From Candidatus Omnitrophota bacterium (GTDB lineage Bacteria; Omnitrophota; Omnitrophia; Omnitrophales; Aquincolibacteriaceae), in contig JAUYMS010000027.1 of the NCBI GenBank assembly GCA_030698625.1, positions 103,781 through 167,780 of the forward strand: DNA of 64,000 bases, read 5' to 3'. Each line of letters starts with the position of its first letter. Positions within the stretch are counted from its first letter, which is position 1. The translations under genes and the position numbers were made by a program. Below the pieces are notes generated by a model. The model saw only the letters and a program-made list of their open reading frames with translations. It had not been told where the DNA came from and searched no databases. Positions 25,201 through 34,200 of this stretch are shown here, one piece after another.

Positions 25201-28200
25201 ACCTCGTTTCATTAACTCCAGCGCATCAATCCACTCAACGGCCGTCGGCGGGCGTTTAATTCCTGACTCATCCACCCACTTTGCTTTATTCAAAAAAGAC
25301 TGCAGGTATGTGAAAACAACAACGCGGTACGTGTCGATGTTCACTTCTTCGGCATAAGCCTCCGTCACGTTCCGGTAGTCGCTGTAAAACCTCATCATCG
25401 CCTCGGCGTCAAAACCCGCCGGCCCGGTAAACGGCCTAAGCAGCGGGTCCGTGCTATCGCTCCGGCTGATGTCGGAAAACGAATCCGTCTCTGACATAAA
25501 CTCGTTTGGAAGTTGTGTGCGGAGTTTTACGTCGTTGAGGAGATTAAAGTAGGGCATATCATACTCGCGCATTCTATCGACACGCGGAACGCTCAGGGAG
25601 TGATCGAGCAGCGCCCGCCGCCACGACTGCGGCAATTTGTCGTAGCCCGGGATACTTGAGATGCGCTGATAGGTTCGAAAACCATCCATATCGTAATCGT
25701 AGTTATACTCCGTATGATTATCCAAGATGTCGAGTTCGCTTGAGTCCTGAAACTCTGCGGGACTGAAGGCATTATCTAAGACATCAAAAACTGACTCTCT
25801 GTTTGTATTAAAAATGTGCGGGTCGTTAGTGTTGGCTTGTTTTCTCTCGAGGTAGTACTCATGGACTTCTGCAACTTTCGCATCAATCAGGTTTGCCGCA
25901 AAACGGCCGGGCACATTGAAAGCATTCCAAGCAACAATCGCGGCAATGATCAGGGCGCCGACACCTGTCAGCAGCCCAAAGAATAGCCGCTTTCGCCAAT
26001 TGCGCTTCCTGATTCTCTGCTCAGCCGCCCGGTCACCATTCCGCAGACCGTACTGGTCAAGCGTCTTGTTCAGCTCACCTTCAGCATTTTCACTGTTGAC
26101 GTTAACAAAGAAGGGAAAATTATAAGCCTCGTCACTCGCGTCGCCCAAAAAGATCCTGTCAGGCGAACTGAACTTCGTCTTATCCAACACAATGGGTTCT
26201 TCGAGCTCACCGGTAAAGACACCCTCGGCCATCTTTAAGCGGTTCCCGGTGATCCCCTGAACGTCGATGTTTAGGCCGGAAAAAAGGTCCGAGACTTCCG
26301 GGGTTGCCAGGAACTTTTCAAAAAGCCCTTCAATGCCGCGCACGACAAATCGGAGCTTGATTTTCTTATTCGGCCCGAAATGATCGCGGACTTGCTTGAG
26401 CGCCTTGACATAGTTCGGGTTGAGTTTCCATTCGGCGACGAGTGTATCGTAATGCTCCTCGCGCAGATGCCCGGCAAAGACGCTGTAATAATTGCGCATG
26501 TGCTCTTCGTTGAAGTCACCGCTTATACGCGCTAGCACGTATTGCTTGCGGGCGGCCTCAAACTCCGCGAGAAACCGGTCTGCCGCGGCATCGCTTTCTT
26601 TCTCGCGTATGCCGTCGGCCACGATATGCTGCAGCTTTCTGGCCTGCTCATCGTAAGAAAGGGTCAGGGTCTCTTCGATATCGCTGTCAATCTCGACAAC
26701 CGCTTCGGTCGCACGCGCGTCCGATGGCTCGGCGCGCAACTCGGAACGCGCAGGCCGCAACTGAACGCCCGCTTCCAAACGGCTCGTCACCTGCTCCTGC
26801 CCTTTCTGAGCCGTCCGCCAATCGGTCTTAGCTTTCGCAAAGTGCTCGCCCATGGCAATAATCTCGGGGCCGTACTTTCGGATCGCAAGAGGGTCGGTAG
26901 CAAAACTTGCGATAATGCGGGTCATTTTTGCCGCAGACGGCCGCGGTTCGCTGCGCCACATGTGATGCATGCGGATCCCGAATCGGAGAATCGTCTCGCG
27001 CTTGGTTCGCTTGAGCTCGACGCCGTTACGCGTGACGGCTTTACCTTCGCCGTCGACCACCGTCTGCAGAGTCTTGTCCGCAAAAAGATTCGTCAGGTTT
27101 GTGAGCCGTTTGCCGGGCTCTTTCCAACCATCGATTAAGAGGTTGGTTGTCGTTCCGATGACGGCGCCGACCTGAATCGCACCGGTCCTTTCGTCATCAA
27201 AATTGAAGCCCTTGGCCCACATCGGGTGCTCGGTCATCGCTCCGAACAGCTGCCGTACGTGTTCCTGTATATTGGGGCGCAAAAACTGTTCTTCATCCTG
27301 CGGCACCGAAGAGAGGGCGAGAATGAGCTTCCAGTATTTCATGGGAATCTCAAGCCGCCGCCGTGCGCCGTTGGATCCGTTAATCACACCCGAGTCCTGC
27401 CGGCTATTGCGATTCAGCTTTCGTCCCCAAAATGTTGCGAGGGGTCCTTCGATTGCCTCTCGATCCTGGTACAACTGTCTTAACGCAGCGATGTCGTAAC
27501 CGTTTTCGGCCATTTCGCGCACCGCAGTGTAATGGCGCCCGATATCGAGACCGAATGCCGTTCGAACCGCAAGTGTCCGGGTATGGTTGTGAAGCACGTC
27601 GAAGGGGTCGTTGCCGCGTTTGTCGAAAGCGCGTTGGGCGTTTGCGCGCAGACGGATCGCATCGCCGGGTAGAGTATCCGCATAATTGATTTTGAGCAGT
27701 TCTCCCGGCGGCAGGCGCGGGATGTCACTTAGGGTCCGGCTTCCGGAATAAGTCAGGAGCATAGAATACCTCCCGGCAAGCACGTCCGCGAGAATGCGTC
27801 TCATTCTCGGGTCATCGCTGCCGCGGTAATAGGCATCAATGAAACCCGTTTTGCGTAATTTCGCGATCGTATCAACGGTGTTTACGAAGAGCCCTCGCTC
27901 GATCGCGCTCTGCGGTGAGGTGGAACCCTTCGGCCACAGCGAGCGCTCCGCAAGAATTTGAAAAAATATTGCCTTGGACACGTCCTCGGCATCCAGGATC
28001 GGCAGGCGATAGGTATTCCGGCTGTCGCCTGGCATACGCCGAGCGAGATTTGGGTATTCAGTTGCAAAAAGCCGCCGCAGCTTCAGTTCCTGGGCGGCAT
28101 AAACCTCGTTCCACAGGACGTAAGTGGAAGTCATGAAGTACACATTCATGAACTCCTCATTGATGATCCGTTCGAACTGTTCGGCTTCACGGATGTTGAA

Positions 28201-31200: not shown

Positions 31201-34200
31201 GGCTTCCAGGCTGAAGTCGATACCATGCCTGCGCGCGATCTCAGCCACGGCCCGCTGACCTTCGGTCGGCCCTTCAGCAACGGGTACCGCTGCTTCGACT
31301 GCCGGTGCTTCAACCGCCGGCGACAGCGCGGGCGCTGGTGCAACCGCGGCAACGGGAGGTTCTGGTTTCTCGGGTTCCTCAACAACGACAGCGGGCGGTA
31401 TCGGTGCGGCCGCTTCAGGTATCCTCTCATCGCCGGTCCTGCTTGCAAAGATACCAAATGTGACGGCAGCGGCTACGGTAATGCCCAATGCGGCGCGCGC
31501 GAACTTGCTCCTTAATCCGGCGCGTAACTCGGAGCGTGCGATATAGGGCTCCAATTGAGGGCCCGCACGCCGAAGCACTCGTTGAAGCACTTGCTTGACG
31601 GCAATGCGTCTTTGGTAAAGGGCCCCCCTGAGGTTGCTAACGCCTAAAAGGGATTCAACGTCAGCGCCTGTTTCCTGAAGGCTTACGTTCTTCAGATCAC
31701 TGAACAGATGCGACGCGGCGCGCACGCGCTTAAAGAAAACCCTCGCCTCGTAAAGAATTTGCGCTTCGCTTTTGGCTTTCGAAAGAAAGCCGCTATCTTC
31801 GAGCGCATTCAAAAGATCACTAAAATTTCCTTCACTCCAATCCCACTGTTCCATGCCGTTAAGAATGCGGCCGAGATAAGCCAAAAGACTGATGTCTTGA
31901 GCTCCATAGGTCCCCAGTTTGGGATCAAACTCATCTGTGGGTAATAGGCCCTGGTCACGGATAGTCCGCATATAGTCGACGAGATATTGTTCGACGTCGA
32001 TCCGGGAACCCTGGTCTACGATGACCTCAATCTGCGCACGCTGTCTATCCGTAAGTATTTCTCTGCCGATTCGATCAAATACTTCATCAGCGCCTAGACT
32101 TTCCGCTTCCATCCGGTCGAGTCGCCGGTTAATTCTCGTGACTTGCCGCAAAGGAAGACCAAAGGTCATTTGCCGCTGAAGCAGTTTTGACCTTACTTCT
32201 GCCACAGCAGACTGATATTCTTCATAGACTCGTGCATTCCCTGCGATAAACCGCGCATCTAATAAGCTGCGAATTCCGATGCCTTCGACTGTCTCCAGAC
32301 TACTGATCATTTCGGAAACCGTCGGCGCATAAGGCTTATTGACTGCGCGCGGACGGGCCGGGAAGTCGACGACACCGACGACGACGCCGATGGCATCGGC
32401 CATGGCCGTCAGCGCCCGGGATCCCTGCACAGTTTTATTCTTGGCCAGAACCAGCAGATCGATATCCGCCGTGCCGTAGGCCGGGTCCTTGCGCGCCATA
32501 CTGCCCAGAAGGGCAACGCTGATTTCCTCTTCGAGCCCGAATGCAGCCACCATGTCGACAACAAATCGTTCCAGTAATTCTGCGTATTTCCGTTCAAAAA
32601 AGTCCAGGTTCTGCAGCGATTCTACCGCCTTGCTTTTCAAGGCGCTCAACTCGCGCTGCAATGCTTCCTGCCTCTCCCGCACACTCGCGTCCGTTCTGAG
32701 TTCGGAGCGGTCGGCGCTCTCGTCGTCGGCGAGCATCGCTGCTTTTCTTTCGTGCCGGTAAAAACTGCGGCGGTAAGTACTGCGAATGGCTTCTACCTGA
32801 ACTTTTGTCGGGCCAATAAACGGCAGAAGAAGCGGTTGATAATCATAAAGCGGCAGGCCCGGGTAGCCCCAAAGTCGTAACCCCACACGCCAAAGCGCGC
32901 GGCCCACAAAAAACAACCACTCCCCGAAGACCTGATACCAGCGCCGCTTTGCCGTTAGCGATGGCTTCAGATACGAATGGTCTCCGTAAACCAAGAGATC
33001 CCACTCACCCGTTTTGGGATCATAGCTAAAGGCCGAGATGCCGACATTCGGCATATGACCCATGAGCTCCATCGTGGCCTTACGTTTCTCAAAGGGAATG
33101 CTCAAAAGCATCATGGTAATGGTAAGAATGGTGAGGCCGTGGCTGCTTATAAGGATGTTCTTCCCTTTGCCTTTTTGGATCTCTTCAAAGAGTTCCCGCA
33201 AATAATTAACCGTGTATCCGCCTGAAAATCCTTCGGTCTCAAATTCTTCTAGATTCACGTTCATGTGCTGGATTAAATCGGCATAAAGATCATAAATCAA
33301 TTCCCGGGCCACGCCGCCCACAGGATGCGTCCCCATTTCATTGAGCCGCTTCTTCACTTGCTGAAAGAGCTCTTGGTCCTTCGCGACAGGCTCAGCGGTT
33401 TTGAAAGAGCGCTCTAGGCGGCCGGAGATGACGCGGTCAAACTTGATGTGCTTTCGCGAGCGGAAAAAATTCCGGAACCCCCGCCCCTGAATCAACCCGC
33501 GCCATGTCGGCGGAGAAAAAGTGAGGTCCGACTGCGTGTAATCGAAGAGGTTCGACGTCGCTTCGACATGCCTGCCGACAACAATGAGGACGCGGTCCGG
33601 ATTTTCTGCCCGCCACGCTTCATACGGTTCTTTATCGAGAAGCGCCGCCGCAGTCGGGTATTTTGTCGGGGTCAGCCGCTCAATCTCCTCTTTGGAAAGA
33701 TCCGTCTCGCGCAACTCTGAGCGGCCGCGGGGACGGAAGCGCTTGCGCTCATGGAAGCGATCGCGTATTCCCGTAAGGCGTCGTGAACGCGACAGCGGCA
33801 GCATGTCGGCAACGTCGTCGGCGATTCCGAATTTCAGAAAGACGATGTTGACGATAACGGTTCCCGCAAAGAGGGCGATCGCGAGAATGAACCTGCGGCT
33901 CGCCGACTCAAAGGGCGCTTTAATCTCCGCGTCGACTTCCGCGTAATAACCCTCGGCTTTTTTGCGGGCCGTCTGCATCAGCGTCTCGACATCATCGCGT
34001 TGTGTCTCGTATTTATCGCCGTCGTCAAAGAGGTTAAGGCCAAGCCAGGAATCCGTTTTCACCCAGTCGTCGGTGGGAAGGGTGTCGCGTATCCTGCGAG
34101 ATTCGTTGTAAATGTCTTCGGCCTGCCAGACGTTGAACGGGGCCTCTCCGGGAACGGCCTCCGCCGTGCGTGTTCCTAGGTCCTTCGCTTTGGCGGCCGC

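Follow-up and report, generated by a model that had tools for sequence, protein, structure and literature searches.

A tandemly duplicated cassette between RSELR delimiters in a giant Omnitrophota gene: a candidate unit of a cellular polyprotein

Whether the giant genes of Omnitrophota encode single proteins or products that are cut up is a recognised puzzle that has been raised in published work; in its accessible text, West-Roberts et al. (bioRxiv 10.1101/2023.11.21.568195) suspect cleavage and state that the cleavage points are not known. The window analysed here, a 64-kb stretch of Omnitrophota DNA, contains one such gene with two adjacent copies of the same module inside it, and so puts the question in a concrete form: are the two copies parts of one protein or separate products of one reading frame? 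The gene is chromosomal, lies about 20 kb from dnaA/dnaN/gyrBA, and shares the window with no detected rRNA. Its main features are the following.

4261..38631, minus strand: giant open reading frame of 11,456 aa (ATG at 38631, stop codon 4261-4263)
36613..38631, minus strand: N-terminal module M01 (aa 1-673), characteristic of the gene class
36612, 35691, 35244, 34536, 33723, 32709, 31536, 29136, minus strand: first-R codon starts of RSELR sites 1-8
26748, 24894, 20322, 18636, 15750, 12063, 5154, 4770, minus strand: first-R codon starts of RSELR sites 9-16
4264..4770, minus strand: C-terminal module M17 (aa 11288-11456), after the last RSELR, ending in ...STMA

The 16 RSELR pentapeptides set off 17 modules of 128-2303 aa (median 562) in a frame that stays open for 34 kb, through both copies and their junction. 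Between the conserved N-terminal and terminal modules (the latter weakly alike among relatives, where they end in -SA) lie 15 mostly unrelated ones. These include a receiver, a GNAT acetyltransferase, a histidine phosphatase, a nucleotidyltransferase-like segment, CofD with NUDIX, and TPR with an SF1 helicase; the corresponding Pfam matches (Response_reg/cREC_REC, Acetyltransf_1, His_Phos_1, CofD, NUDIX and AAA_11/AAA_12, with TPR weak and sub-threshold) are never repeated and lie well inside their modules, away from the delimiters, and the remaining middle modules gave no detectable domain. With an ORF above the 10-kaa mark and many distinct, non-dominant Pfam domains, the gene resembles the 'multi-enzyme metabolic cluster' giants of Omnitrophota as described in the accessible text of bioRxiv 10.1101/2023.11.21.568195 and 10.64898/2026.06.07.730766, which likewise exceed 10 kaa and are tiled with unrelated enzyme domains; a signal peptide, scattered TM segments, internal repeats whose nucleotide sequences point to an old origin, and relatives that are nearly all Omnitrophota are further points in common. 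A delimiter motif is given in neither of these texts, and the second discards internal signal-peptide calls as artefacts. Unlike the giants described there, the window gene has a pentapeptide at every module boundary, and its relatives carry internal Tat signals after R-[STA]-E-x-R.

The count of 16 RSELR in the giant ORF compares with 0.03 expected from composition and a maximum of 2 in 2000 shuffles, and none occurs in any of the remaining five frames across the 64 kb. The sequence-only reading had listed RSELR as a part of the duplicated module; that it recurs 16 times as a delimiter in one ORF was not noticed there. In 199 kaa of related ORFs, a sample biased in that the P-proteins were retrieved via the duplicated module and the L loci cover only about 4 kaa, R[STA]E.R occurs 215 times and seven control motifs 2-18 times (at least 12-fold enrichment); an eighth control, R.E[STA]R, occurs 63 times, but overlaps R[STA]E.R itself. 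The x residue is more uniform within ORFs than between them (0 of 5000 shuffles reach the observed value, and the uniformity persists without the window giant and P0001), as expected for lineage-specific protease specificity. Furthermore, the edges of modules common to several giants coincide with the motif. In L018, the match of M12 (aa 1095-1672) is preceded by RSETR at 1072 and, about 15 residues after that, RAETR, and is followed by RSEVR at 1680; M06 matches aa 2799-3125 of L021, flanked by two RAEVR sites; and the match of M14 in L006 starts just after RTELR. Whole modules are also found as tandem paralogues in other giants (L005 m02/m03, L009 m06/m07 and P0001 m08/m09), and m08/m09 of L009 group as well, together with one L002 module.

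Signals for export cluster behind the motif. By crude calls (a regular expression for Tat, Kyte-Doolittle for TM segments), 11 of 13 internal Tat-like signals, defined as RRxFL plus a hydrophobic stretch and including two overlapping matches at one site, lie at most 45 aa downstream of RSExR, where 7.7% would be expected (binomial p = 3.6e-11). Homologues of the duplicated domain in P0003, P0004 and P0006 start with such signals just after a delimiter, and P0002 has a similar TRRDAL segment. These distant relatives show the layout of Tat signal peptides, S/T-R-R-x-F-L followed by an h-region and an A-x-A-like end, differing from them in being internal to a giant ORF; the classical twin-arginine signal before the domain places the family outside the cytoplasm. 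The S/T-R-R-x-F-L-K n-region is absent from M08, M09 and P0001 (...KSKRLWVSAV...), where, with the RR pair lost, a hydrophobic segment of greater length and a Pro-rich spacer are found instead. M05, M08 and M09 are the three modules of the window giant that carry a TM segment at the N-terminus, in each case 10-12 residues after RSELR.

Our preferred reading, with a probability of roughly 0.6, is that the giant is a cellular polyprotein cut at RSELR and that the two copies, A and B, are paralogous cargo cassettes in it, where we infer both the cleavage and a protease that performs it. RSELR (R-[STA]-E-x-R in relatives) would be an endoproteolytic processing site, and cleavage would free each module with an N-terminus of its own, after which signal-bearing modules would be targeted independently. 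Each copy would yield a protein of about 85 kDa whose first 30 or so residues, a basic n-region and a hydrophobic segment, would act as a Sec signal or signal-anchor, leaving a domain tethered to the inner membrane that would reach into the periplasm by way of its Pro-rich spacer.

A single membrane-associated multi-enzyme megaprotein, with RSELR as an uncleaved linker (a docking or modification site, or a hinge), is a serious but unlikely alternative. The hydrophobic segments would then be ordinary internal TM helices, which need no free N-terminus, and A and B would lie side by side within one protein as periplasmic loops or domains, in keeping with the accessible text of bioRxiv 10.64898/2026.06.07.730766, which reads such proteins as single SP+TM or TM-only architectures. 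It also suits this reading that neither Pfam, NCBIfam nor family searches found a protease in the giant, its N-terminal module included (a JAMM-like H-S-H-P-x10-S-x-x-D in M02 has no HMM or PDB support), and that the motif is missing from distant relatives with the same N-terminal module: ORFs at about 25% identity (for example L034, L035, L037, L038, L040-L048 and L055-L080) contain R[STA]ExR rarely or not at all, and no recurrent substitute motif was found in them. However, Tat-like signals with AxA-type ends, which normally act at an N-terminus, recur 2-38 residues past the motif, and one hydrophobic segment in each of M08 and M09 would put the later NUDIX, CofD and helicase domains on alternating, partly wrong sides of the membrane. 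Nor would one uncut protein account for the exchange of modules among giants as motif-bounded units, and a docking motif leaves unexplained why conservation at the delimiter comprises five residues and no flanking positions.

It is very improbable that RSELR reflects a signal at the level of DNA or RNA (for recombination, RNA processing or translational recoding, for instance) instead of one in the peptide. The copies are bounded by three delimiters (CGCTCCGAGTTACGC, CGCTCCGAATTGCGC and CGTTCCGAGTTGCGC) with pairwise identity at 12-13 of 15 nt, which fits such a signal as possible duplication microhomology; over all 16 sites, however, the codons for Arg (CGC/CGG/CGT/AGA/CGA), Ser (TCG/TCT/TCC/TCA/AGT) and Leu (CTG/TTG/CTC/TTA/CTT) vary freely and the peptide is invariant, so that selection acts on the peptide, and the relatives retain R-[STA]-E-x-R on quite different DNA.

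The duplicated unit itself is exactly one delimiter-to-delimiter cassette, laid out colinearly in both copies as RSELR, hydrophobic anchor, Pro-rich spacer (about 55 residues) and an all-alpha domain of about 710 aa.

29137..31536, minus strand: copy A, module M08 (aa 2366-3165 of the giant ORF; 800 aa; four parts)
31522-31536, minus strand: copy A, RSELR
31447-31503, minus strand: copy A, basic n-region and hydrophobic segment (aa 2377-2395)
about 31273-31428, minus strand: copy A, Pro/Ala/Glu/Val-rich spacer
29137-31272, minus strand: copy A, all-alpha core (aa 2454-3165)
26749..29136, minus strand: copy B, module M09 (aa 3166-3961 of the giant ORF; 796 aa; four parts)
29122-29136, minus strand: copy B, RSELR
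29044-29100, minus strand: copy B, hydrophobic segment (aa 3178-3196)
about 28888-29034, minus strand: copy B, Pro-rich spacer
26749-28887, minus strand: copy B, all-alpha core (aa 3249-3961)
26734..26748, minus strand: RSELR closing copy B and opening the unrelated module M10

Two consecutive, colinear copies composed of RSELR, a TM segment, a Pro-rich linker and a domain of about 700 aa had been recognised in the sequence-only reading; all of these parts held up, and the boundaries fall within about 6 nt of those proposed there. The long blocks that it reported as identical are all present, with a single difference (DEDIPDLW in copy A, DEDLPDLW in copy B). Alignment at the protein and DNA levels with dN/dS, a check which that reading had suggested, put its estimate of two-thirds identity at 65.1% of residues (515 of 791, with 14 gap columns; MAFFT pairwise) and 66.2% of codon-aligned nucleotides (74%, 81% and 44.5% at codon positions 1, 2 and 3). 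The NG86 method gave dN 0.27, dS 2.19 and omega 0.12, and LWL85 an omega of 0.17; by region, omega is 0.11 in the core domain and 0.24 in the TM segment plus linker. Since synonymous sites are saturated (dS about 2.2), the duplication is old, as had been supposed, and both copies are under purifying selection (dN/dS about 0.11-0.17), which agrees with the argument that conservation across the copies reflects function. A and B are the only internal paralogous pair in the giant ORF (self-BLAST of the 17 modules), and their identity to each other (65%) exceeds that of either to the single copy in P0001 (54% for A, 53% for B). The whole cassette was duplicated in tandem after the split from P0001, the nearest known relative; the near-identical 15-nt delimiters may have given microhomology for this event, and purifying selection has since kept both copies. 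An assembly or binning artefact (strain variants joined in error, or a repeat that was collapsed or expanded), already doubted in the sequence-only reading, is scarcely credible. The assembly is of metagenome type, and the only other one found, a Logan contig (SRR13727534) identical to window positions 34369-46640, breaks inside the giant gene and ends before the copies. However, the copies are separated by 34% nucleotide divergence, which rules out an assembly-generated repeat, and by 14 indel columns, whereas identity above 95% would be expected of strain variants; the frame is open throughout, purifying selection (omega 0.11) and a clean RSELR at all three boundaries are unlike a chimera, and tandem module paralogues occur in other giants too.

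The domain had been put forward as unrecognised and possibly novel, and the profile and structure searches with the core that had been proposed alongside matched no known family or fold. Copies A and B gave no Pfam or NCBIfam family at E <= 0.01, and P0001, P0002 and P0004 no Pfam family at E <= 0.001; the PDB yielded no match by sequence and none by predicted fold, although confidence in the AF2 model, built from 7 sequences, is moderate (pLDDT 74) and an absent fold match is no proof of a new fold. Rare relatives do exist: a profile HMMER search of 1.84 billion representative proteins gave 6 matches, namely five proteins and one short fragment, and M08 matches P0001 at aa 922-1728. At least four of the relatives sit inside giant proteins of the same class, P0001, P0003, P0004 and P0006 being proteins of 2.4-7.2 kaa with the shared N-terminal module and punctuated by RSE[LMIVT]R. 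Judged by sequence, then, the domain represents a family new to the databases and not an orphan; it is rare, all-alpha, probably periplasmic and probably without a known fold. The export route of A and B we likewise infer, as we do the activity of the domain, for which an envelope- or polymer-acting enzyme or scaffold is a guess from localisation. Copy B also contains an internal RSEPR (aa 3893), aligned with RGEPR of copy A inside the conserved block ...RMHHMWR[G/S]EPRP...; it falls in a loop that the AF2 model predicts between helices and is probably not a functional delimiter.

As the sole universal module of these giants, M01 is the natural candidate for the protease. It begins like a signal peptide (RRKLYLGRR, a hydrophobic stretch, then LYA before QP), and residues D97-A-H99, E127-G, R460 and G485-G-F-H-T489 of its core are invariant in 62 relatives. 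M01-type modules were confirmed at at least 567 loci in GTDB species genomes, several per genome and nearly all titled Omnitrophota; the closest loci (30-37% identity) are all titled Omnitrophota or 'uncultured bacterium'. Searches linked the module to no known family or fold. A lead to the TraB/PrgY/GumN/TIKI hydrolases, which we took to be suggested by GxxH/E/RD/GxxH-like motifs, found no support: hhalign against E. coli YbaP gave a probability of 0.2% (5- and 62-sequence profiles; a single template, and a weak test), and PF01963 is absent from Pfam scans of the N-terminal module at E <= 10. It counts against M01 as the protease that its signal peptide is expected to send it to the periplasm, out of reach of junctions in the cytoplasm. 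The DAH...EGA...GGFHT module is not mentioned in the accessible text of bioRxiv 10.1101/2023.11.21.568195 or 10.64898/2026.06.07.730766.

The polyprotein reading invites a wider proposition, to which we would give an even chance: that in a clade of Omnitrophota large parts of the proteome are made as polyproteins encoded on the chromosome. Giant ORFs would undergo translation as single units and then be cleaved at R-[STA]-E-x-R by a protease tuned to the lineage, perhaps the universal N-terminal DAH/GGFHT module. Dozens of independent proteins would be released, some of them exported by way of Sec or Tat signals that cleavage has uncovered, and delimiter-bounded cassettes would be the units in which modules are acquired, lost, shuffled and duplicated, A and B representing one such duplication.

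Several known systems offer partial parallels. In flaviviruses, NS2B-NS3 cleaves after dibasic sites and internal signal sequences set the topology; picornavirus 3C is another example. The window gene shares with viral polyproteins a single ORF, unrelated functions, internal signal or anchor sequences and a short motif recurring at the boundaries of independently folding modules, with cleavage here proposed; it differs in being chromosomal, in encoding cellular-type enzymes and in being known from sequence alone, and R-S-E-L-R matches, to our knowledge, no viral cleavage site. RgpA, Kgp and HagA of Porphyromonas gingivalis are bacterial chromosomal precursors cut at Arg/Lys into several functional domains, and thus similar in their basic-residue sites and tandemly duplicated (adhesin) modules, whereas they comprise few domains, form a single functional complex and contain a well-characterised protease within the precursor; we know of no fixed pentapeptide or internal export signals in them. 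Cyanobactin PatE-type RiPP, yeast alpha-factor and neuropeptide precursors also consist of cassettes flanked by a short conserved recognition sequence, their number changing by tandem duplication, but their products are short peptides and their cassettes usually paralogous, compared with unrelated enzymes of 15-250 kDa in the window gene.

Collectively, the delimiter marks the module junctions, bounds the exchanged and duplicated units and precedes Tat signals that are otherwise inexplicable, which makes the question of one protein or many directly testable. With it, candidate mature proteins can be cut out of the giants in silico and passed on to structure prediction, annotation and proteomics, and the structure of the duplicated domain is worth solving. 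If the polyprotein reading is true, polyprotein processing, a gene-expression strategy regarded as essentially viral, would be at work on cellular enzymes in a bacterial phylum, the cleavage map missing from the published work on these giants would be supplied, and the paradox of cytoplasmic enzymes inside 'secreted' giants would be resolved.

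The two consecutive, colinear copies recognised in the sequence-only reading lie in tandem within a single minus-strand ORF (4261-38631, 11,456 codons), which the pentapeptide RSELR splits into 17 modules (M01 to M17). Recognisable domains of this giant always fall within modules.

Modules of the giant ORF with a recognisable domain or a specific role in the analysis
M01, 36613-38631, minus strand: N-terminal module
M03: receiver domain
M04: GNAT acetyltransferase
M06: histidine phosphatase
M07: GlnD-like nucleotidyltransferase segment
M08 (copy A), 31536-29137, minus strand, residues 2366-3165, from the RSELR split
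M09 (copy B), 29136-26749, minus strand, residues 3166-3961, from the RSELR split
M11: CofD and NUDIX
M15: weak TPR matches and SF1 helicase

Nine of the modules, copies A and B among them, produced no Pfam or NCBIfam match, and Pfam searches with M05, which precedes the copies, and M10, which comes after them, were likewise negative. M02 (35692-36612, minus strand, residues 674-980) contains an H-S-H-P-x10-S-L-S-D motif that resembles that of JAMM/MPN+ metalloproteases except for its longer spacer; this motif is the only feature pointing to a JAMM protease, an assignment that HMM and PDB searches did not support. The second module of the related giant P0001 has a zincin-like HEAGH instead, also with no HMM or PDB support as a protease.

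Aligned end to end, copies A and B are 65.1% identical (515/791 residues, 14 gap columns), and their codon-aligned DNA is 66% identical with just 44.5% identity at third positions. The NG86 method gives a dN of 0.27, a saturated dS of about 2.2 and an omega of 0.12, and LWL85 an omega of 0.17; by region, omega is lower in the globular core (0.11) than in the N-terminal anchor and linker (0.24). These values bear out the earlier estimate of roughly two-thirds identity and the view that the duplication is old. Because the DNA identity is only 66%, dS is saturated and self-BLAST of all 17 modules detects A/B as the sole internal paralogy, the similarity is far beyond chance and the repeat cannot have been made by assembly, as had been argued from the sequence. 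The one other assembly found, a separate short-read assembly of the same sample, includes Logan contig SRR13727534_195068, which is identical to window positions 34369-46640 and ends before the copies; its end at 34369 is a break within the giant, in M05. Giants are fragmented in public assemblies, as in this case, which explains their absence from protein databases. A 38-mer spanning the A/B junction had no exact match in JGI contigs.

The giant gene is chromosomal: within 25 kb of it are ychF, rlmN, corA, an ABC transporter, tRNA genes and serS, as well as gyrA, gyrB, dnaN, dnaA, yidC and mnmG. The region 48100-63165 is a replication-origin neighbourhood, with serS, gyrA, a GAF histidine kinase, gyrB, dnaN and dnaA on the minus strand, yidC and mnmG on the plus strand, and a switch in the sign of GC skew near 58-59 kb. 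A DnaA-box scan revealed no convincing cluster, the 950-bp dnaA-yidC gap holding two imperfect boxes only. The mechanically called ORF of a hexapeptide-repeat transferase (3537-4412, minus strand) overlaps the giant's final 150 nt, and that of an FkbM methyltransferase (44420-45292, minus strand) overlaps tRNA-Ser(GGA) at 45190-45279; the true starts of both are probably further downstream, and the Logan gene call for the latter is 235 aa.

Both copies share one layout. RSELR leads into a short run of basic residues and, starting 11-12 residues past the motif, a hydrophobic segment some 19 residues long; next come a Pro-, Ala-, Glu- and Val-rich spacer of about 50-55 residues and a domain of roughly 710 residues. 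A HMMER search of 1.84 billion representative proteins with a profile of the two cores resulted in six matches.

HMMER matches to the core profile
P0001, 4675 aa: E = 0, single module copy at residues 1023-1728
P0002, 1112 aa
P0003, 7212 aa
P0004, 2402 aa
P0005, 92-aa fragment
P0006, 5233 aa

The anatomy of P0001, P0003, P0004 and P0006 is the same as that of the window giant: a signal-peptide-like sequence precedes a conserved module some 600-750 aa long that bears the motifs VVxIQDAH, LEGA, FY..A..RD and TGGFHT; a series of modules punctuated by RSE[LMIVT]R comes next, and the last module, of about 170-300 aa, has -SA at its end. P0002 has neither the N-terminal module nor the motif and finishes with the same kind of terminal module. 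The terminal modules are weakly conserved in this class of giants, ending in -SA in P0001-P0004 and P0006 and in -MA in the window (4264-4770, minus strand), and those of P0002 and P0006 resemble each other significantly (E ~1e-6).

In a seven-sequence alignment, the distant family members are 20-23% identical and carry a Tat-type signal with an AxA-like end in place of the anchor and spacer. The conserved core motifs are T(F/L)(T/S)AEDW, ITRDxD(I/V)P, (D/E)xWxxLNxxW, DDP...AGxY, (I/F)D(F/Y)..T.P.DAIR, LD(I/V)GR, LNxN...D.G and FNFxDPxTGxxQVGxVIG. The AlphaFold2 model derived from this alignment is all-helical (about 34 helices, mean pLDDT 73.9, pTM 0.67), and fold searches with it found no significant neighbour in the PDB (Foldseek, best E 2.5) or in BFVD (best E 0.1). 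Pattern-based scans of GTDB genomes and JGI metagenomes yielded no confirmed relative of the duplicated module, and an HMM of the family detected no further copy in 80 loci carrying an M01-like module. Given the lack of significant sequence or fold matches and the six HMMER hits, the family, whose domain the sequence-only reading could not recognise, is therefore new to Pfam, NCBIfam and the PDB, and rare. Judged by the predicted signals, it would be extracytoplasmic; an activity on an envelope polymer or a scaffold role is speculation. In P0003 (aa 4009-6995) and P0006 (aa 2244-5011), the family is directly followed by a second Tat-signal module of about 2.8-3 kaa with a large polytopic membrane domain at its end, and the two may form a functional partnership. 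BLAST clustering placed this module with modules of about 340-400 aa in two of the M01-bearing loci (L017 aa 1087-1429 and L028 aa 1308-1709); a Pfam search with the C-terminal 1.4 kaa of the P0006 module, its membrane part, gave no match.

The identity between copies A and B (65%) exceeds that of either to the P0001 copy (54% for A, 53% for B), so, barring gene conversion, the cassette doubled after the split from P0001. Their homology is confined between three bounding RSELR sites, and because the DNA of these sites is nearly identical (12-13 of 15 nt), unequal exchange between delimiters may plausibly have given rise to the duplication. Given that adjacent paralogous modules are also present in the loci L005 (m02/m03) and L009 (m06/m07 and m08/m09) and in P0001 (aa 3789-4377), tandem duplication of whole cassettes appears to be a way in which these giants regularly change, with A/B as one instance.

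M01 is the sole universal module among the 203 modules compared. A scan of one genome per GTDB species confirmed at least 567 M01-like loci, several per genome and nearly all titled Candidatus Omnitrophota; among the matches listed, a few come from Auribacterota or carry the label 'Planctomycetia' or 'Elusimicrobia', and identity to the window M01 is at most 37%. On these grounds the window very probably derives from an Omnitrophota lineage not represented in that set. Across 62 sequences, D97, H99, E127, R460 and H488 (within D-A-H, E-G, R and G-G-F-H-T) are invariant, which fits a putative hydrolase. Profile searches of Pfam and the PDB detected no known family, so that M01 defines a very large family unannotated in either database. 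As for M01 being a TraB/TIKI-like protease, a reading we considered, hhalign, Pfam and PDB profile searches gave it no support.

RSELR is found 16 times in the giant, whereas composition predicts 0.03 occurrences and 2000 shuffles gave at most 2; none of the remaining five frames across the 64 kb contains it. Since the Arg, Ser and Leu codons differ widely among the 16 sites, selection acts on the peptide rather than on the DNA. The ORFs that follow the N-terminal module in the 80 retained loci contain 129 RSExR sites, mainly in the closer relatives (3-12 per 4 kaa or less); RAExR or RTExR takes their place in some lineages. In a pooled set of 68 ORFs (199 kaa), R[STA]E.R was counted 215 times, compared with 2-18 occurrences for each of seven control motifs (D or Q for E, K for R, permuted order); an eighth control, R.E[STA]R, which overlaps the motif itself, occurs 63 times. 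Conservation is confined to the five motif positions, the flanks being merely somewhat rich in disorder-promoting residues. The fourth residue is more uniform within ORFs than between them (the observed value was reached in 0 of 5000 shuffles) and is Leu at all 16 sites of the window giant and all 9 of P0001, a pattern that co-evolution of the motif with a lineage-specific recognition partner would produce. Two RSEPR sequences fall in folded domains, one at aa 1087 (nt ~35359-35373) inside the M03 receiver domain and the other at aa 3893 (nt ~26941-26955) inside the copy B core, where copy A has RGEPR; with Pro at the fourth position, they are probably chance occurrences or non-functional variants. 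Several loci have paired delimiters 7-37 residues apart (L003 aa 1887/1898, L005 2459/2477, L012 1198/1235 and 2926/2962, L017 1079/1086, L031 2816/2831, L071 511/524); cleavage at both members of a pair would free short spacer peptides.

Modules common to different giants begin and end at the motif.

Modules of the window giant shared with other giants
M12: L018 aa 1095-1672, between RSETR 1072 (RAETR about 15 residues further downstream) and RSEVR 1680
M06: L021 aa 2799-3125, between RAEVR 2798 and RAEVR 3137
M14: L006, match beginning just past RTELR 1477
M08: P0001 aa 922-1728, matching module

Such sharing of cargo is rare, 145 of the 203 modules being singletons. Furthermore, 24 motif-bearing giants contain 13 internal twin-arginine-type signals (two of the 13 being overlapping hits at a single site), and 11 of the 13 start no more than 45 residues downstream from a motif, a range that covers 7.7% of positions (p = 3.6e-11), as in RSEIR-SLTRRAFLKISAMAAVAG and RSEVR-SPISRRRFFKTAAAGLTGAAVL. 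The bounds of the shared modules, the unshared cargo, the nearby Tat signals and the uniformity of the fourth residue within ORFs support the view that the motif delimits independent proteins. The main alternative, an uncleaved megaprotein in which RSELR is a linker or docking motif, we consider rather unlikely though by no means negligible: it leaves the internal Tat signals unaccounted for and creates a topological conflict from one TM segment per module.

If the motif does mark protein ends, the giant would be translated as a polyprotein and an endopeptidase would cut at or beside R-S-E-L-R; modules that lack a signal would remain in the cytoplasm, and M05, M08 and M09, with a signal or anchor in their first residues, would be inserted or exported, so that copies A and B would end as membrane-tethered periplasmic proteins. 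This processing model has three weak points. M01, as the sole universal module the candidate for the protease, matched no known family in the searches above; its signal peptide should place it in the periplasm, yet the cytoplasmic modules after it would have to escape export; and distant clades keep the N-terminal module without R[STA]ExR, and a search of these relatives for a substitute recurrent delimiter found none.

In the available text of two earlier preprints, giants of this kind are described as multi-enzyme and membrane-associated, with abundant ancient internal repeats, and no delimiter is mentioned for those of Omnitrophota (10.1101/2023.11.21.568195; 10.64898/2026.06.07.730766). 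Their cleavage points are stated there as not known (10.1101/2023.11.21.568195), and internal signal-peptide calls were set aside as artefacts (10.64898/2026.06.07.730766). The searchable literature contained nothing relevant on RSELR or on polyproteins in Omnitrophota/Omnitrophica or in bacteria. Thus, beyond the duplication, for which the original observation and interpretation both stand, the delimiter, not found in that literature, is the larger result and provides a testable map of putative cleavage sites for the Omnitrophota giants.
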